DNA of 64,000 bases. Origin: Escherichia phage KEP2. Shown here one piece after another: positions 3,022 to 13,590 of this stretch. The position numbers were made by a program, and so were the translations under genes. How positions within the stretch are numbered: the stretch's first letter is position 1; every line of letters begins with the position of its first letter. The stretch lies in the sequence record PP047752; one strand, written 5' to 3'. The notes under the pieces are model-generated. The model did no database searches. It was not told the DNA's origin and worked only from the letters and a program-made list of their open reading frames with translations.

Positions 3022-4437
3022 ATGAGCGAATTATTTAAACATGCGCACCTTCATGCAGGTCGAACTGAAAATGGTGCTGTAAACCATACTTCATCAATGT
3101 CTGCTCTGGTAGACTTCTACAAAGCCGCTGGCTCAAGCCGTAGCAATGTAGAAATTTTACCAGACCTGTTCTACAAAGCTTTGCGTGAGGATGTTGATGT
3201 TGCAGTTCGTATTTTACTGCATATGCGAGATGTAAGAGAAGGTATGGGTGAGCGTAAAGCTTTCCGAACTGTTTTACTTCAAGCGATTGAAGATAAAGTT
3301 TTAGAACCTACACAGGTTCTTCGCATTATGGATAAGATTGCAGAGCTTGGTCGTTTTGATGACTTCAAAATCTTCGTAGGTACTCGTTTTGAGACAGATG
3401 CCTTCAAACATTTAGAAGCAGCATTACTAGACCCTGCAACAGCAGGTTTAGCAGCTAAGTGGTTACCACGAGTAAAACCACGCCACAAACAGTTTGTAAA
3501 ACGTTTCTGTAAGTTTGCAAACTTAAGTGAGAAGGAGTATCGCACACTGTTATCTGCACTGTCTGATACAGTTGAGCAAAAAATCTCTGCTAATGAGTTT
3601 GGTAAGATTGACTACAGCAAGATTCCTTCACTCGCTGCTGCACGTTACCAAAAGCTCTTTAACCGTAAAGATGGGGAACGTTACAAAGCTTACATTGAGT
3701 CCCTCTCAAAAGGTGAGGCTAAGATTAACGCTGGTGCTGTTTACCCATACGATGTGATTAAATCTATCAAGTATGGTAATGCAGATGTTGCTAATGAGCA
3801 GTGGAAAGCACTACCAAACTGGATGGCAGATGGTGAAAACATCTTGTGTATGACTGATGTTTCAAGCTCAATGTCTTGGGTGAATCTTGGTTCAATCACT
3901 GCCCTTGATATTGGTGTATCACTTGCCTTGTATGTAGCAGAACGCAATACAGGTTGCTTTAAGAATGAGTTAATGGTTTATTCAACAAACCCTCACTTCA
4001 TCGAACTGAGTGGTGATTTACGAAACCGTCATCGTCAGGTAATGCGTCATGTTGAATATGGCTCAACTAACTTACAAGCAGCTTTTGACCGCATTCTTGA
4101 GATAGGTAAGAGAAACAACTTGACTCAGAAAGATATGCCAAGTAAGCTTATCATCTTCTCTGATATGGAGTTTAATCAGGTTGATGGTGCAAATGGTCGT
4201 ACAAACTTTGAAGCAATTCAGAGTAAGTACAAAAAAGCTGGATACGAAATGCCACAACTAGTATTCTGGTACTTAGCAAACCGTAATGGTACTTGCGAAG
4301 TATCTGTTAAGGATAATGGTGTAGCAATGGTATCAGGGTTCTCTCCAGCCACTTTAAAAGCTCTGCTTGGTGGTGAGAAGTTTGACCCAATCAGCGTAAT
4401 GCTCAAAGCAGTAATGATTGACCGTTACATCTGGTAA
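3022..4437 (+). CDS. vWA-domain protein, candidate Ro60/Rsr-like (TROVE-vWA) RNA-binding protein
   Basis: 471 aa; MIDAS-type D-x-S-x-S (MTDVSSSMSW) and downstream LIIFSDMEF motif resemble the Ro60 vWA domain as I recall it; helical N-terminal ~270 aa; lies just upstream of tRNA/Y-RNA-like cluster. TROVE assignment is not verified. Confidence 0.45.
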   Translation: MSELFKHAHLHAGRTENGAVNHTSSMSALVDFYKAAGSSRSNVEILPDLFYKALREDVDVAVRILLHMRDVREGMGERKAFRTVLLQAIEDKVLEPTQVLRIMDKIAELGRFDDFKIFVGTRFETDAFKHLEAALLDPATAGLAAKWLPRVKPRHKQFVKRFCKFANLSEKEYRTLLSALSDTVEQKISANEFGKIDYSKIPSLAAARYQKLFNRKDGERYKAYIESLSKGEAKINAGAVYPYDVIKSIKYGNADVANEQWKALPNWMADGENILCMTDVSSSMSWVNLGSITALDIGVSLALYVAERNTGCFKNELMVYSTNPHFIELSGDLRNRHRQVMRHVEYGSTNLQAAFDRILEIGKRNNLTQKDMPSKLIIFSDMEFNQVDGANGRTNFEAIQSKYKKAGYEMPQLVFWYLANRNGTCEVSVKDNGVAMVSGFSPATLKALLGGEKFDPISVMLKAVMIDRYIW

Positions 4438-4602: not shown

Positions 4603-4679
4603 CTCTGTTTAGCTCAGCTTGGTAGAGCGTTCCGTTTGGGGCGGTAAGGCCGGAGGTTCAAGTCCTCCAACAGAGACCA
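4603..4679 (+). tRNA. tRNA-Pro (anticodon TGG)
   Basis: Acceptor complementarity, TAGCTCAG D-arm, anticodon loop TTTGGGG, T-arm GGAGG-TTCAAGT-CCTCC. Confidence 0.7.
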
Positions 4680-4686
4680 AATTAAT

Positions 4687-4764
4687 GTTCCAGTAGACAA
4701 AATGGTAAAGTCACCACTCTTTCAAAGTGGATATTTGAGGGTTCAAATCCCTTCTGGAACGCCA
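4687..4764 (+). tRNA. tRNA-Glu (anticodon TTC)
   Basis: Acceptor GTTCCAG/CTGGAAC, anticodon stem CCACT/AGTGG with loop CTTTCAA, T-loop TTCAAAT, CCA encoded. Confidence 0.7.
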
Positions 4765-4771
4765 GTTTTGA

Positions 4772-4844
4772 CAGAAGACCAATTACAGCAAACTTAATCT
4801 TATTCATCTGACACGAAATCGGACAAAGAAGAGGTTTGGTCTGG
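4772..4844 (+). repeat. hairpin module A of CAGAAGACC…GGTCTGG family
   Basis: 5' CAGAAGACCAA pairs with 3' TTGGTCTGG; CAGCAA box in loop. Confidence 0.5.
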
Positions 4845-4855
4845 TCATTAAGAAT

Positions 4856-4932
4856 TGCGGGTATAGAGAAAGGGCGTCTCACATGTCTCATTAGCATGGT
4901 ATCGGCAGGTTCGACTCCTGCACCCGCCTCCA
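4856..4932 (+). tRNA. tRNA with anticodon CAT (Met or Ile2)
   Basis: D-stem GAGA/TCTC, anticodon stem CATGT/GCATG with loop CTCATTA, T-arm GCAGG-TTCGACT-CCTGC, CCA encoded; one acceptor mismatch. Confidence 0.55.
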
Positions 4933-4938
4933 ATTTTG

Positions 4939-4998
4939 CAGAAGACCGTATTCAGCAACAAAATACTTTTTGCGGATAAAAGAAAAAACACGGTCTGG
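4939..4998 (+). repeat. hairpin module B of CAGAAGACC…GGTCTGG family
   Basis: 5' CAGAAGACCGT pairs with 3' ACGGTCTGG (compensatory change relative to A and C); CAGCAA box. Confidence 0.5.
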
Positions 4999-5009
4999 CA
5001 ATGTATTAA

Positions 5010-5086
5010 GGTTAGGAAGCACATAAGGTATGTGCGGTCGCCTGTTAAGCGAATGGCACAGGGTTCGAATCCCTGACTAACCGCCA
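5010..5086 (+). tRNA. tRNA-Asn (anticodon GTT)
   Basis: D-stem GCAC/GTGC, anticodon loop CTGTTAA, T-arm CAGGG-TTCGAAT-CCCTG, CCA encoded. Confidence 0.7.
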
Positions 5087-5173
5087 AATTATAATAAGTA
5101 TTTCAAGATGATGTTTTGAGAGGGCTATTTAGCCCCTCCCTTAAAGAGTTCTTACGAGTATTCTTTAAAGGAG

Positions 5174-5248
5174 CAGAAGACCAAATTCAGCAAGTACGTA
5201 TGATATTTTCAAGCCAATCAAATTTTGAAAAATTTAAACTTGGTCTGG
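5174..5248 (+). repeat. hairpin module C of CAGAAGACC…GGTCTGG family
   Basis: 5' CAGAAGACCAA pairs with 3' TTGGTCTGG; CAGCAA box. Confidence 0.5.
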
Positions 5249-5261
5249 CTCAACAAATTTA

Positions 5262-5393
5262 CAGAAGACCGTTTACAGCAAAACTTAAACAATCTATTTC
5301 TCCGGTAAAGAAAAGGTGAAGGTTCGATTCCTTCACTCGGCAGATGTCGAGTTGGTGTAATGGTAACACTTAAGATGATAAACAACGGTCTGG
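5262..5393 (+). ncRNA. candidate Y-RNA-like (YrlA-like) ncRNA with permuted tRNA-like core
   Basis: Terminal stem AGACCG(5266-5271)/CGGTCT(5386-5391); inside, T-arm GAAGG-TTCGATT-CCTTC (5318-5334), 7-bp acceptor-like stem ACTCGGC/GTCGAGT closed by AGAT loop (5335-5352), D-arm GTGT-AATGGTA-ACAC (5355-5369). Confidence 0.45.
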
Positions 5394-5542
5394 TAATTAT
5401 CTTTGTAGGTGAGCTATTAAGCTTACCTGTGAGTATGCGACCACAAAGGGTGAAAGGGTAAATTCTAGATTTAAACCCAACAAGGCACATCGCTACAGAC
5501 CTTAAGCAAGTCTGGGTAGCTTATCTACAAAGATAATTTAAT

Positions 5543-5618
5543 GGAAGTGTAGCAGAATGGTGATGCGGCAGACTTTTAATCTGACAGGCGATGGGTTCGA
5601 ATCCCTCCACTTCTACCA
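5543..5618 (+). tRNA. tRNA-Lys (anticodon TTT)
   Basis: Acceptor GGAAGTG/CACTTCT, anticodon loop CTTTTAA, T-loop TTCGAAT, CCA encoded. Confidence 0.6.
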
Positions 5619-5622
5619 ATAT

Positions 5623-5699
5623 GGTTCAGTCGCAGATAAGGTAATGCAGGGGTTTCATAAGCCCTTTGAATGTGGGTTAGATTCCCATCTGAACCTCCA
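5623..5699 (+). tRNA. tRNA with anticodon CAT (Met or Ile2)
   Basis: Acceptor GGTTCAG/CTGAACC, anticodon stem GGGGT/GCCCT with loop TTCATAA; T-loop atypical (TTAGATT). Confidence 0.5.
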
Positions 5700-5701
5700 A
5701 T

Positions 5702-5776
5702 TGTGGGTTAGCATAAATGGTAATGCAAACGGCTGATAACCGTTAGAAGAGGGTTCGATACCCTCACCTACAACCA
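5702..5776 (+). tRNA. tRNA-Ile (anticodon GAT)
   Basis: D-stem GCAT/ATGC, perfect anticodon stem AACGG/CCGTT with loop CTGATAA, T-arm GAGGG-TTCGATA-CCCTC, CCA encoded. Confidence 0.75.
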
Positions 5777-5791
5777 ATTTCAATAAAGTTG

Positions 5792-5820
5792 TTGACATTG
5801 AGATGTGACCACTTTATAGT
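5792..5820 (+). promoter_or_regulatory. sigma70-like promoter (TTGACA-17-TATAGT) inside the tRNA array
   Basis: TTGACA 5792-5797, 17-nt spacer, TATAGT 5815-5820. Confidence 0.55.
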
Positions 5821-6113
5821 AACTAAAATACTTCATAATATGTATAATTCAAACACCAATACATGAGCGTTAGACGTAACACAATGTGGGGAAATTTGTT
5901 GTACATATTCTGAATAGTTTTCGTTGCGTAGCGTCTATTTTGCAAATTTAAAATAAATGCAAACGACAATGTTTTTCTGGCAGTAGCTTGATAGGCTAAA
6001 CACCAGTGAGGTCTTCCAATCCCTCATCAAAGAATTTGGCGTACTCGCCCACGGTATGATTAATAAGGTGGGCATCTTTAAGGGCTTTCTAAGAGAGTCT
6101 TTAAAGATAATTA

Positions 6114-6195
6114 CGGGGCGTATCTCAGCGGTCTTCTAAACCGCCGTTAACCGAGTAAGTGGAGTATGCGGGTTCGAGTCCTGCCGCCTCGACCA
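6114..6195 (+). tRNA. atypical tRNA-like element (T-arm, acceptor and TCT anticodon-like loop; no recognisable D-arm)
   Basis: Acceptor CGGGGCG/CGCCTCG plus CCA, T-arm GCGGG-TTCGAGT-CCTGC, stem-loop GCGGT-CTTCTAA-ACCGC; 82 nt. Confidence 0.4.
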
Positions 6196-6209
6196 ATTTT
6201 GGAGAAATC

Positions 6210-6557
6210 ATGAAAACTTGTATTAGGTGCAAACTTAGCAAGGATGAAAATGATTTCTACATGAAAGATGGTAAGAGAACTCATTCATACTGTAAAAAGT
6301 GTGTTAATGAGCAAACCATAGAAAGACAAAGAGCACTTAAACTTTCAGCTATTGAGTACAAAGGTGGGGTTTGTCATGATTGTGGTAAAAGGTATCATCC
6401 AGCAGTGTATGACTTCCATCATTTGAATCCTTCAGAGAAAGATTTTAACATTGGTCATAGAAAAAGTCTGAAGTTCTCTCAAGAACTAAAAGATGAACTT
6501 GACAAATGTGTTTTGCTATGTTCAAATTGCCATAGGGTAAGACATGCAAAGTATTAG
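6210..6557 (+). CDS. HNH homing-endonuclease-like protein
   Basis: CxxC…CxxC zinc pairs and HH…N…CH motif (YDFHHLNP…CSNCHRVRH); start taken at ATG 6210 because track start 6159 overlaps the tRNA-like element. Confidence 0.7.
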   Translation: MKTCIRCKLSKDENDFYMKDGKRTHSYCKKCVNEQTIERQRALKLSAIEYKGGVCHDCGKRYHPAVYDFHHLNPSEKDFNIGHRKSLKFSQELKDELDKCVLLCSNCHRVRHAKY

Positions 6558-6694
6558 TTAGCAGATTGCTTAGACGACCTTATCGGGTCTCCGTGTAAGG
6601 AGGTGGTCTGTATCTCATGTTTTCCAGAACATGTAAATAATCTGAGAAGGGGCTTTACAGTGTTGCGAAAATACGGTAAGCTTCGAATTATAGT

Positions 6695-6776
6695 GTGGGA
6701 CGATGTTAAGACTCTAAGGCATGAGCAACGGCCTCCAAAACCGTTTCAAAGTGGTTCAACTCCTCCGTCCCATGCC
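6695..6776 (+). tRNA. tRNA-Trp-like (anticodon CCA), atypical length
   Basis: Acceptor GTGGGAC/GTCCCAT plus CCA, anticodon loop CTCCAAA; D-region too long for a canonical fold. Confidence 0.4.
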
Positions 6777-6790
6777 AAAGTCTTATTAGG

Positions 6791-6878
6791 GGTAGGTAGC
6801 GGCTAATGGTAGCCAAACTGTCTTGAAAACAGTTGCCACTGTAGAGATACGGTGAGGGTTCGACTCCTTTACTTACCG
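6791..6878 (+). tRNA. tRNA-Ser (anticodon TGA), long variable arm
   Basis: Acceptor GGTAGGT/ACTTACC, anticodon stem ACTGT/ACAGT with loop CTTGAAA, ~20-nt variable arm, T-loop TTCGACT. Confidence 0.6.
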
Positions 6879-7135
6879 CCTAATAAGATTTAAAGCCAAG
6901 CTTCATTCGGATGTTGCTTTGGTATCCCTCGTGTATTGTCGTACACACTGATAAAGCACCTAGTAGGTGTCACGGAGAAGAGATAATATCAAGCTCTCCA
7001 AAGGTTCTAGTCACCGGATTAAACAAGACTATGCAAAGACCAATTTAGGTCTTTTTAGAGGGCTTCTAAGGTTATTACAGCTTGTTGTGGAACCTTGTTG
7101 CTTAGGTTCTTAGAAGTTCTCTAAAAAGATTTAAT

Positions 7136-7212
7136 GCACCTATAGCCCAACTGGTAGAGGCAGCAGACTTAGAATCTGCTCAGTGTGAGTTCGAATCTCT
7201 CTAGGTGTACCA
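7136..7212 (+). tRNA. tRNA with anticodon TAG (Leu codon CUA) but short variable loop
   Basis: Acceptor GCACCTA/TAGGTGT plus CCA, 6-bp anticodon stem AGCAGA/TCTGCT with loop CTTAGAA, T-loop TTCGAAT. Confidence 0.5.
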
Positions 7213-7219
7213 AATTAAT

Positions 7220-7295
7220 GCAGGTGTAGCAAAATGGTTATGCGGCTGACTCTTAATCAGTAAGACGATGGGTTCAATTCCCTCCACCTGTACCA
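7220..7295 (+). tRNA. tRNA-Lys (anticodon CTT)
   Basis: Acceptor GCAGGTG/CACCTGT, anticodon loop CTCTTAA, T-loop TTCAATT, CCA encoded; paralogous to 5543-5618. Confidence 0.6.
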
Positions 7296-7301
7296 AACAT
7301 T

Positions 7302-7377
7302 GGGGATGTAGTTTACATGGTTAAAACATAAGTTTTGCAAACTTAAGTACAGGGTTCAATTCCCTGCTTCTCCACCA
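7302..7377 (+). tRNA. tRNA-Ala (anticodon TGC)
   Basis: D-stem GTTT/AAAC, perfect anticodon stem TAAGT/ACTTA with loop TTTGCAA, T-arm CAGGG-TTCAATT-CCCTG, CCA encoded. Confidence 0.7.
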
Positions 7378-7459
7378 ATTAGTGCATCCATAGTTTAAAT
7401 GGGAAAATTACAGTCTTCCAAACTGAGGTTGAGGGTTCGATTCCCTCTGGATGCTCCAA
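7372..7459 (+). repeat. 88-bp perfect direct repeat, copy 1 (contains tRNA-Gly)
   Basis: Identical to 7785-7872 by direct comparison. Confidence 0.85.
7384..7458 (+). tRNA. tRNA-Gly (anticodon TCC), copy 1
   Basis: Perfect acceptor GCATCCA/TGGATGC, anticodon loop CTTCCAA, T-arm GAGGG-TTCGATT-CCCTC, CCA encoded. Confidence 0.75.
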
Positions 7460-7465
7460 ATTAAT

Positions 7466-7541
7466 GCTCCTATCGTATAATTGGCTATTACGGTTGCCTT
7501 GTAAGCAACTTATCAGGGTTCGAATCCTTGTGGGAGCACCA
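7466..7541 (+). tRNA. tRNA-Thr (anticodon TGT)
   Basis: Acceptor GCTCCTA/TGGGAGC, perfect anticodon stem GTTGC/GCAAC with loop CTTGTAA, T-loop TTCGAAT, CCA encoded. Confidence 0.7.
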
Positions 7542-7543
7542 AT

Positions 7544-7632
7544 TCAGAGGTCAAGTGAAAGACCGCTGGTGTCAACTGAAGACCGTAACAAATTCCACGG
7601 AGTTGAGTTAGCGGCACAACTTCAGACCTCTT
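7544..7632 (+). ncRNA. structured spacer, candidate small RNA related to the AGACC hairpin family
   Basis: Outer stem CAGAGGTC/GACCTCT, inner pairings CTGAAG/CTTCAG and CCGCT/AGCGG; contains CTGAAGACCGTAACAAATT resembling the 5' box of modules A-D. Confidence 0.3.
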
Positions 7633-7636
7633 TCAT

Positions 7637-7711
7637 ACTCGCTTAGTTTATATGGTAAAACACCACCCTTACAAGATGAAGAAAAAGGTTCAAGTCCTTT
7701 AGTGAGTACCA
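7637..7711 (+). tRNA. tRNA-Val-like (anticodon TAC), weak anticodon stem
   Basis: Acceptor ACTCGCT/AGTGAGT plus CCA, D-stem GTTT/AAAC, T-arm AAAGG-TTCAAGT-CCTTT; only 3 of 5 anticodon-stem pairs. Confidence 0.45.
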
Positions 7712-7712
7712 T

Positions 7713-7790
7713 GTTCCAGTATCCCAATTGGCAGAGGATGCAAGCTCAAACCTTGTATTAGTGACGGTTCGAATCCGTCTTGGAACACCA
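7713..7790 (+). tRNA. tRNA with anticodon CAA (Leu codon UUG) but short variable loop
   Basis: Acceptor GTTCCAG/TTGGAAC plus CCA, anticodon stem GCAAG/CTTGT with loop CTCAAAC, T-arm GACGG-TTCGAAT-CCGTC. Confidence 0.5.
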
Positions 7791-7872
7791 ATTAGTGCAT
7801 CCATAGTTTAAATGGGAAAATTACAGTCTTCCAAACTGAGGTTGAGGGTTCGATTCCCTCTGGATGCTCCAA
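7785..7872 (+). repeat. 88-bp perfect direct repeat, copy 2 (contains tRNA-Gly)
   Basis: Identical to 7372-7459. Confidence 0.85.
7797..7871 (+). tRNA. tRNA-Gly (anticodon TCC), copy 2
   Basis: Sequence identical to 7384-7458. Confidence 0.75.
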
Positions 7873-12243: not shown

Positions 12244-13590
12244 ATGAGTTCGAATATCTTCAGACTTGCTGATAGATTATTCAACCAACCTTTACTAGCC
12301 ACTGAATCCTTAGCTCACTCAGCAGCAACTTATGTGAATAACAGATTGCTGGGTGATGTCCAAGCAGCAGTAAACTTTGATAAACCCAAAGGTGAAGCAA
12401 GAAGTCTTTTAAAAGTAAAAGATGACATTGCTATTATCCCTATTATGGGTGGTTTAACTCATCGTATGACATTCATTGATGCAATGTGTACAGGTGGTTT
12501 AAGCTCTTATGAAGGTTTGCGCAGAGGCTTTGACGAAGCTTTAGCAGATGAGTCAATCAAGACTATTGTTCTGCATATTGATTCTGGTGGTGGTGAAGCT
12601 TCAGGTTGCTTTGAATTAGCACGTCACATCATGGCTTCAAGAGGCCAAAAGAAAATTATTGCTTATGTAGATGAGTTCGCTTGTTCCGCTGCATATGCTC
12701 TTGCATCTTCTGCTGAAGAAATTATTGCATCACCAGATGCAGATGTTGGTTCTATTGGTGTAATCATGGTTCATCAGGAATTAACTAAGGCATTTGAAAA
12801 GAATGGCGTAACAATTAACGTCATCAAAGCTGGTGAGTTTAAAGGTATGGGTTCACCATTCCAAGCACTTTCAGAAGAAAGCAAAGAAAGACTTCAAAAG
12901 AGAATTAATGATACCTACGCAACCTTTACAGGTTTTGTAGCTGAATCTCGCAATCTCTCTGAAGAAGCTGTAAAGAATACTGAGGCGAATGTTTATTCTG
13001 CTCAGGAAGCTCTTGAACTTGGTTTAATTAACTCAATCATGTCTCAAGATGATTTCTTAAATTACTTACAAGGTTCTGAAGAGGCTCCTGTAAGTTTAAA
13101 CGTTAACAATTCAGGTGAAGAAATGACTGAACAAGAAAAGCAAGAACTAGAAGCTTTGCGTCTTCAGGTTGCTCAAATGAAAGCTAAAGAACAGGAAGCT
13201 GCTTTGTCAGATTTGACTAATAAGATTTCTGCTTCTGCTGAAGCTTTTGGATTTGATGCAAAAGAAGCTGCAACGACTATTTTAGGTGCTGGTCTTGATA
13301 ACCCTCTGAGCGTTCTGTTTATGAATGCTATGGAAGGTGCTAACCAGAAACTTAATGAAACTATCGCGTCCCATGCTTCTGCAATGGAAGAAAAAGAATC
13401 AGAAATTACCAAGCTGAAAGAAACTGCTGGTGCTGTTCTTGAACATTCCAACGCTATGGAAGAAGTGGGTAATGACGGCGAAGCTGATTTGGTTGAAGAA
13501 GAAAAAGAACCAGCTAAGAATGCTTCCGAAGACACCGCTGAACAACGCAAACTGGCTCTCCAGAATGCTCTAAAATCTCTTATCAAATAA
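12244..13590 (+). CDS. prohead protease (S49/ClpP-like) with C-terminal scaffold-like coiled-coil region
   Basis: IPIMGGL…HIDSGGGEASG serine-peptidase-like N-half; E/K/A-rich C-terminal half. Confidence 0.6.
   Translation: MSSNIFRLADRLFNQPLLATESLAHSAATYVNNRLLGDVQAAVNFDKPKGEARSLLKVKDDIAIIPIMGGLTHRMTFIDAMCTGGLSSYEGLRRGFDEALADESIKTIVLHIDSGGGEASGCFELARHIMASRGQKKIIAYVDEFACSAAYALASSAEEIIASPDADVGSIGVIMVHQELTKAFEKNGVTINVIKAGEFKGMGSPFQALSEESKERLQKRINDTYATFTGFVAESRNLSEEAVKNTEANVYSAQEALELGLINSIMSQDDFLNYLQGSEEAPVSLNVNNSGEEMTEQEKQELEALRLQVAQMKAKEQEAALSDLTNKISASAEAFGFDAKEAATTILGAGLDNPLSVLFMNAMEGANQKLNETIASHASAMEEKESEITKLKETAGAVLEHSNAMEEVGNDGEADLVEEEKEPAKNASEDTAEQRKLALQNALKSLIK

Follow-up and report, generated by a model that had tools for sequence, protein, structure and literature searches.

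Escherichia phage KEP2 (sequence record PP047752) carries, within a tRNA array that extends from position 4603 to 7871 of the 64,000-nucleotide (nt) stretch analyzed here (the window), an 82-nt tRNA-like element in which the D hairpin is replaced by a D-stem-like helix (h2) whose strands lie on either side of the anticodon arm. KEP2 is a Felixounavirus (Felix O1-like), and its closest relatives are 94 to 99% identical over 5780 to 6900. The element is probably a functional, AGR-decoding tRNA-Arg with a rewired D-stem, because the anticodons of its family are those of arginine only, it carries the anticodon and discriminator nucleotides of the identity set of arginyl-tRNA synthetase (ArgRS), it is exchanged with a canonical allele at the same locus, the phage makes heavy use of AGA codons, and there is precedent for D-armless tRNAs. 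A gene coding for an HNH endonuclease follows directly downstream.

Helix h2 replaces the D hairpin

The original prediction, made from the sequence of the window, had described an 82-nt tRNA-like element with an acceptor stem, T arm, CCA, and a TCT anticodon stem-loop, and its coordinates (6114 to 6195) are confirmed. Several cloverleaf criteria are present, including a 7-bp acceptor stem, an anticodon arm with U33 and a purine at position 37, and a T stem with a UUCRANY loop; CCA is encoded at 6193 to 6195, directly after the discriminator A6192, and is preceded by 79 nt. The usual place of the D arm contains only UAUCUCA (7 nt), the anticodon and T stems are spaced 23 nt apart, and there is no local D-arm hairpin in any register between position 9 and the anticodon arm. 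Infernal with the Rfam tRNA model (RF00005) scores the element at 31.7 bits (gathering score, 29), the lowest of 16 tRNA hits in the window, and aligns it with the D arm deleted (4 nt for 15 model positions) and a 20-nt insertion in the variable region. ARAGORN makes no call at 6114 to 6195 with default settings, lowered thresholds, intron mode, or mitochondrial mode, and a hidden canonical D arm or intron was rejected on the blank relaxed, intron, and mitochondrial runs. The element is organized as follows.

6114 to 6195, + strand: non-canonical ("rewired") tRNA-Arg(UCU) gene with CCA encoded; 82 nt; Rfam tRNA, 31.7 bits; identical in Salmonella phage BPS15Q2
6114 to 6120, + strand: acceptor stem 5' strand CGGGGCG, pairing with 6185 to 6191; 7/7 pairs double-changed, 99.4% of cells paired
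6121 to 6123, + strand: connector U8-A9-U10; columns 8 to 10 invariant in alignments A1 and A2
6124 to 6126, + strand: helix h2 5' strand CUC (nt 11 to 13), the D-stem equivalent, pairing with 6153 to 6155
6128 to 6144, + strand: anticodon arm GCGGU-CUUCUAA-ACCGC, with a 5-bp stem and 7-nt loop, anticodon UCU at 6135 to 6137; 5/5 pairs compensated
6145 to 6152, + strand: bulge of 8 nt, CGUUAACC, separating the anticodon stem from the h2 3' strand; near-invariant C-R-U-Y-A-A-N-N
6153 to 6155, + strand: helix h2 3' strand GAG (nt 40 to 42), pairing with 6124 to 6126
6156 to 6167, + strand: D-loop-like single strand UAAGUGGAGUAU (U-A-A-N-Y-G-G-A...); UAA..GGA in every subfamily
6168 to 6184, + strand: T arm GCGGG-UUCGAGU-CCUGC, with a 5-bp stem and 7-nt loop; 4/5 pairs compensated, G53:C61 in 48/49 members
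6185 to 6192, + strand: acceptor 3' strand CGCCTCG (6185 to 6191) and discriminator A6192

This organization is strongly reflected in covariation among 49 distinct 79-nt family members, in which 94.6% of cells are paired and 20 of 21 pairs have double changes. The acceptor, anticodon, and T helices are 95 to 99% paired with compensatory changes at nearly every pair; none of 500 shuffles reaches the observed whole-structure values, and pairing falls to 34 to 48% when the partner register is slid by 1 to 3 columns. The connectors seem invariant among the coliphage copies, and it is the more distant members that reveal the fourth helix, h2, in which nt 11 to 13 (CUC) pair with nt 40 to 42 (GAG) to enclose the anticodon arm. 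All three h2 pairs are formed in each of 58 distinct members that were re-collected with all six letters unconstrained, and there are eight alternative Watson-Crick combinations besides CUC:GAG, namely CGC:GCG, CGG:CCG, CAU:AUG, CAG:CUG, CUU:AAG, CAC:GUG, UCC:GGA, and, in Streptomyces phage Persimmon, CCG:CGG. Pairs 12:41 and 13:40 rank among the true helix pairs in an unbiased mutual-information scan, and a fourth h2 pair (14:39) is added in 10 of the 49 members. The bulge on the 3' side of h2 is 8 nt in length, with 3 to 5 nt in some subfamilies and 10 nt in one. The absence of a recognizable D-arm, as first noted, thus holds for a local hairpin, but not for the molecule as a whole, in which a D-stem equivalent pairs at long range around the anticodon arm.

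Two other pairings were considered and discarded. The second GAG (6162 to 6164) is a poor partner for CUC, as one subfamily has GAU there and it is the site of the first GAG that covaries. The minimum-free-energy fold contains a local hairpin (YCG/UGG) in the variable arm, but this has no covariation support, with fold energy being uninformative.

Helix h2 is followed by U-A-A-N-Y-G-G-A and then 3 to 5 further nt. The UAA..GGA motif is conserved in every subfamily, including where retrieval left it unconstrained, and resembles a D loop with putative equivalents of A14, R15, G18, G19, and A20; one member (L156) has UAG...C where all others have UAA...U, a single Levitt-type (15:48) change. A family covariance model (R1) separates these elements from conventional tRNAs, with members scoring 47 to 97 bits (the window element scores 97.2 but is one of the training sequences), canonical tRNAs scoring no more than 34 bits, and canonical tRNA-Arg(UCU) alleles giving partial hits of about 12 to 15 bits. 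Streptomyces phage Daubenski has a family member by this model (47 bits), in which h2 is not assignable by eye.

These features suggest how the RNA might function. The anticodon arm is nested in, and probably stacked on, the D-stem-like helix formed by CUC (nt 11 to 13) and GAG (nt 40 to 42), with the 5' strand of h2 probably replacing that strand of the D-stem which runs on into the anticodon stem, and its 3' strand standing in for residues 10 to 13. The U-A-A-N-Y-G-G-A strand most likely acts as the D loop, its GG contacting the T loop, which it would reach before the chain enters the T stem; the three-dimensional core of a tRNA would be preserved, with the chain threaded differently. The A following GG may serve as the A20 identity nucleotide for ArgRS, such that the host enzyme would charge the RNA with arginine and the RNA would read AGA and AGG, codons that are rare in the host and the commonest arginine codons of the phage.

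Arginine identity and distribution of the rewired tRNA family

The identity set of bacterial ArgRS consists of C35, U or G at position 36, A20, and A or G at position 73, and the rewired family agrees with it at positions 35 and 36 and, in most members, 73. Among 67 distinct members the anticodons are UCU (63), ACG (2), CCU (1), and UCG (1), all of them for arginine, and C35 followed by U36 or G36 is present in 67/67. Of 42 members, 37 have a purine discriminator (A in the window copy) and 27 encode CCA. The GG-A at 6161 to 6163 in the D-loop-like strand is invariant across subfamilies, and its A is the candidate spatial match to A20.

The element is also exchanged with a conventional tRNA gene. 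The slot is dimorphic in Ounavirinae, with the rewired allele in ∼101 records and a canonical tRNA-Arg(UCU) in the same place in ∼119 records; Escherichia phage Barry, for example, has a canonical tRNA-Arg(UCU) in the very slot of the rewired element. The window has no other tRNA-Arg, and AGA is its commonest arginine codon (248/624, or 39.7%, with AGG at 9%, in 40 long open reading frames [ORFs]). Felix O1's genome paper (2010) reported that AGA is over-represented and that a tRNA for AGA was expected, but that tRNAscan-SE found none (PMC3185647). That such an RNA could be used is consistent with an engineered D-armless tRNA being accepted by Escherichia coli histidyl-tRNA synthetase, EF-Tu, and ribosomes (PMC11551756).

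Members of the family are found in a broad array of phages. With the element and its immediate upstream flank (6050 to 6200) as a query, matches outside of the close relatives are limited to the 82-nt element (82 to 90% identity) and are in unrelated phages. These include the jumbo phages PBECO4, 121Q, and SE_PL; Sugarland; Klebsiella phage Roth39; the Stephanstirmvirinae phage ESCO9 (phi92-like); the Vequintavirinae phages W70 and KpS8 (rV5-like); the Kuravirus phages HC-25922 and 1-6af; and, among actinobacterial phages, Streptomyces Stanwilliamsviridae and Rhodococcus phage Trina. At least 279 GenBank phage records hold the element, and it represents an annotation blind spot, being unannotated in most of them and otherwise labelled tRNA-OTHER or tRNA-Undet; ARAGORN calls only 4 of 93 family members (96% missed). 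The 67 distinct sequences come from three scans of IMG/VR, whose patterns were drawn from differing regions of the element so that each scan left the others free. Ordinary tRNA genes are present at 79 of 92 rewired-family loci. The family is restricted to phages, because a 22-nt core pattern has one match, on the contig of a metagenome-assembled genome, in 185,579 bacterial and archaeal GTDB species genomes (596 Gb), and a search of 5,426 complete E. coli genomes with the element gave no match. Two uncultured contigs each have two rewired tRNA-Arg genes, at 12999 to 13077 and 13348 to 13426 of L053 (anticodons CCU and UCU) and at 2689 to 2763 and 4029 to 4107 of L093 (ACG and UCU), so the scaffold has diversified within the arginine isoacceptors.

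Several considerations weigh against a functional tRNA-Arg with the proposed core. The Levitt-type covariation comes from a single sequence and one event, the A20, G18, and G19 equivalences are drawn from sequence resemblance, and minimum-free-energy folding does not produce h2, with a fold energy no better than that of shuffles (z = 0.04). The invariance of the linkers is in part an ascertainment effect, the members having been fetched with linker-derived patterns. At three loci a rewired member coexists with a separate canonical tRNA-Arg(UCU), so the two types are not always mutually exclusive, and the engineered D-armless tRNA required a pnp mutation to accumulate in E. coli, such that stability in vivo is not guaranteed (PMC11551756).

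The element could instead be a tRNA mimic that acts outside of translation, as a decoy or sponge for a tRNA-Arg-directed nuclease or other tRNA-binding factor, or as a primer or regulator; this is the main alternative, although we consider it unlikely. The family is confined to virulent phages, some of those with a rewired member also carry a canonical tRNA-Arg(UCU), and the extreme conservation of the linkers between proteobacterial and actinobacterial phages suggests that a protein partner is conserved too. Some phage tRNAs are known to counteract defences based on tRNA cleavage. However, a mimic of this type does not readily account for maintenance of the 7+5-bp acceptor/T branch, the purine discriminator, the frequent CCA, and the canonical T loop and 7-nt anticodon loop, nor for four different arginine anticodons on one scaffold. 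Moreover, the element can be exchanged with a canonical tRNA-Arg(UCU) in the same slot, and the window phage is AGA-heavy and lacks any other tRNA-Arg.

Decay of a tRNA-Arg gene into a pseudogene, through insertion of the endonuclease gene or after it, has very little prospect of explaining the element. The missing D hairpin, the failure of ARAGORN, the borderline Rfam score, and the normal tRNA-Arg(UCU) that precedes the same HNH gene in Shigella phage Sf16 all fit such a history, but the element is identical in HNH-free relatives, and the 67 distinct members, from phage families that are unrelated, have compensated changes in all four helices and linkers that do not vary. The stems differ throughout among members, and because pseudogenes do not covary, this explanation is refuted. 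The suggestion that the endonuclease had disrupted a tRNA-Arg gene fails likewise, as the element is unchanged in endonuclease-free relatives and the covarying family occurs in unrelated phages without such an HNH gene. More remote still is a tRNA-like domain that resembles tmRNA and accepts alanine. A 4-kb search has tmRNA as its top Rfam clan hit (22.1 bits, spanning both model ends) and the window copy has G3:U70 together with A73, but G3:U70 is present in only 8 of 42 members compared to G3:C70 in 21 of 42, there is no mRNA-like domain and no tmRNA call by ARAGORN, and the arginine anticodon arm is conserved; an alanine identity founded on G3:U70 and A73 was dropped, as G3:U70 is not conserved.

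The functional tRNA-Arg can be compared with several known systems. In the D-armless tRNA-Ser of metazoan mitochondria, the anticodon stem is extended by pairing of the 5' connector with the region 3' of the anticodon arm. This tRNA-Ser (AGY/UCU) is the nearest analogue, sharing the lack of a D hairpin, short connectors, and the predicted AGN reading with the phage RNAs (PMC7609411, PMC4013460). The phage family differs in that it is found in bacterial cells, retains a T arm that is canonical throughout, and has a D-loop-like strand of 12 nt containing GG-A as well as arginine anticodons. It is also longer than a normal tRNA, and its linkers, far from being eroded, hardly vary. The canonical tRNA-Arg(UCU) alleles of Barry and Sf16 have the slot, the CUUCUAA loop, a similar T loop, and a purine discriminator and CCA in common with the rewired element, and the D-loop motif of Barry (AAUUGGA) resembles the AANUGGA of the rewired family; they differ in having a local D hairpin and a 5-nt variable loop. 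Class II tRNAs and tRNA-Sec likewise have extra sequence between the anticodon and T stems, where Infernal places the variable-region insertion, but in the rewired element there is no local variable hairpin, the GAG is paired with the 5' connector, and there is no D hairpin.

The rewired class is widespread, phage-restricted, and apparently undescribed. Full-text literature searches found no account of such a phage tRNA, although their coverage is incomplete and an earlier description is possible. Phages are absent from a 2020 review of non-canonical tRNAs (PMC7609411), and a 2024 paper describes all known bacterial tRNAs as cloverleaves (PMC11551756). More tentatively, and with slightly less than even confidence, we propose that these RNAs are a new elongator tRNA class of virulent phages of Gram-negative and actinobacterial hosts, arginine-specific, with D-stem strands flanking the anticodon arm, that would be charged by the host ArgRS and used by the ribosome, and that was perhaps selected as escaping the recognition or cleavage of canonical tRNA-Arg. 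That the topology is retained because it evades host factors acting on canonical tRNA-Arg is speculative. If true, the class would be the first natural, non-organelle exception to the cloverleaf rule for tRNAs in bacterial translation. If the RNAs are charged and decode, then a tRNA with a rewired core is already in use in natural bacterial translation, which would provide a natural test of the tertiary contacts needed by ArgRS, EF-Tu, RNase P, the CCA-adding enzyme, and the ribosome, offer a ready candidate for orthogonal tRNA engineering, and supply the "missing" AGA tRNA of Felix O1-type phages.

The HNH cassette

The HNH gene and its translation signals form a cassette that is precisely absent from relatives with an identical tRNA element.

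6200 to 6555, + strand: HNH cassette, 356 nt, with presence/absence polymorphism; the boundary can slide by 2 nt
6201 to 6204, + strand: Shine-Dalgarno sequence GGAG of the HNH gene, read from the sequence and inside the cassette
6210 to 6557, + strand: HNH endonuclease ORF, 115 amino acids (aa), with stop codon TAG (6555 to 6557) completed by the flank

The cassette starts 4 nt past the CCA end, and the ORF starts 14 nt downstream of the element with an ATG, 15 nt on from the CCA end. The initial assignment of this ORF as an HNH endonuclease is supported by its match to PHROG 2255 (E = 1e-39), a phage-specific profile that is decisive, and by alignment of the motif CxxC...HH..N...CxxCH..H (CHDC...DFHHLN...CSNCHRVRH), with its flanking zinc-binding CxxC pairs, to the McrA HNH domain 6ghc (E = 0.0023); a point against it is that the match to the Pfam HNH family (PF01844; E = 0.0085, 16.7 bits) is under the curated cut-off of 21.4. 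A longer, GTG-start ORF (6159 to 6557) that overlaps the tRNA element is spurious, as endonuclease-free relatives are identical to 6199 and resume at 6556.

In Salmonella phage BPS15Q2, the identical 82-nt element is followed by ATTT|AGTTAGCAG, the window being identical up to 6199 and again from 6556, and many other felixounaviruses likewise have an identical element and lack exactly 6200 to 6555. The full-length HNH gene is present in 27 of 50,697 phage records, 25 of them felixounaviruses (at least 95% identity) and two moogleviruses (84.6%), compared to the ∼101 records with the same tRNA allele and upstream flank; the cassette is also present in 3 of 12 Felix O1-like IMG/VR contigs bearing the element. 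The window and Sf16 HNH proteins are 87% identical with a ratio of nonsynonymous to synonymous substitution (dN/dS) of 0.06, indicating that the protein is kept functional. In Sf16 the same HNH gene follows a canonical 76-nt tRNA-Arg(UCU). That the gene had landed beside a tRNA, as originally proposed, is supported by this precise absence and by its own ribosome-binding site. The original prediction had also named two observations as contrary to it, and of these a normal D-arm is absent, whereas relatives do have the tRNA arrangement free of an endonuclease.

HNH genes have been acquired next to rewired tRNAs elsewhere. In Klebsiella phage Roth39 the rewired tRNA has one such gene beside it, and in Persimmon it lies between two. 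The window HNH protein has no homology with that of Roth39 (E = 0.49), such that these are independent insertions. Immunity to the HNH enzyme through the rewired allele was considered but is not supported, as Sf16 has the HNH gene after a canonical tRNA-Arg and ∼76 phages with the rewired allele lack it.

The cassette most likely codes for a predicted free-standing homing endonuclease that is mobile or optional, and is not the origin of the odd tRNA; cleavage and homing are its predicted activities. Free-standing homing endonucleases are well known in phage tRNA gene clusters, such as SegB of T4 and F-TflI, F-TflII, and F-TflIV of T5. The window HNH gene resembles these in being a small ORF with its own translation signals, lying between tRNA genes, and being present or absent among relatives; it differs in that T4 SegB is a GIY-YIG enzyme and the window protein is a 115-aa HNH protein (PHROG 2255). 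It is improbable that it is instead a resident accessory nuclease, for example in DNA packaging or processing, that has been lost in some relatives. The strong purifying selection (dN/dS, 0.06), the large terminase gene 1.7 kb downstream, and the same position in two genera are compatible with such a role, but the gene is absent from about three-quarters of the felixounaviruses with the same tRNA allele, its boundaries are clean and include the ribosome-binding site, relatives have further HNH or endonuclease VII genes elsewhere in the tRNA array, and Roth39 and Persimmon have HNH genes next to the rewired tRNA, that of Roth39 being unrelated. Patchiness of this kind is typical of selfish free-standing endonuclease genes. 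A homing endonuclease here would be an ordinary case of endonuclease-driven mosaicism in phage tRNA arrays.

Other features of the tRNA array

A second atypical tRNA-like element, with anticodon CCA (Trp), is located at 6696 to 6773. It is recognized by ARAGORN only in mitochondrial mode and by the Rfam tRNA-Sec model at 21 bits, and minimum-free-energy folding gives it an acceptor of 8 bp, a 5' connector of 9 nt, the hairpin CUC-UAAGGCAU-GAG, and an anticodon stem that closes a 9-nt loop. In Sf16 this anticodon stem has compensatory changes (AACGG/CCGTT versus GTAAG/CTTAC). This Trp-like element is present in 235 phage records, all those listed being Ounavirinae-type, and is almost never annotated; in VpaE1_ev78 a different, ARAGORN-recognizable tRNA-Trp occupies its slot. 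A tRNA-Gly(UCC) gene is present as two identical copies (7797 to 7871 and 7384 to 7458), and the second of these is in the slot occupied by tRNA-Arg(ACG) in BPS15Q2 and VpaE1_ev78, with the downstream sequence differing too. Slot-wise replacement of tRNA genes seems to be common in this array.

The window also lacks, at 5087 to 5542, the tRNA-Tyr and tRNA-Asp genes that its relatives have between tRNA-Asn and tRNA-Lys, and the spacer that is shared with relatives holds a T-arm-like fragment at 5285 to 5335 (Rfam tRNA, 22 bits, partial). A tRNA-Met(CAT) called by ARAGORN at 4856 to 4932 is below the Rfam tRNA threshold, and its homologue in the Felix O1 paper has a low Cove score of 28.9 (PMC3185647). 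Directly upstream of the array, at 3022 to 4437, is a gene coding for a 471-aa protein with DUF2828, DUF7788, and von Willebrand A domains.

A 337-nt spacer free of tRNA genes (5777 to 6113) between tRNA-Ile and the rewired tRNA is conserved in relatives and has weak, sub-threshold tmRNA-type Rfam matches (16 to 25 bits). A+T-rich, hairpin-like repeats (…CTTTAAGGGCTTTCTAAGAGAGTCTTTAAAGATAATT…) are located just upstream of tRNA genes at 6077 to 6113 and 7043 to 7135, the latter with a sub-threshold Rfam match to a miRNA-precursor-like hairpin, and these may be processing or transcription signals. Optional ORFs include an 'endonuclease VII' ORF between tRNA-Gly and tRNA-Thr in BPS15Q2 (L001, 2838 to 3251) and, in VpaE1_ev78, an ORF of 405 nt that lies after the Trp-like element and before tRNA-Ser (L003, 2418 to 2822), and the tRNA array looks like an insertion hotspot.

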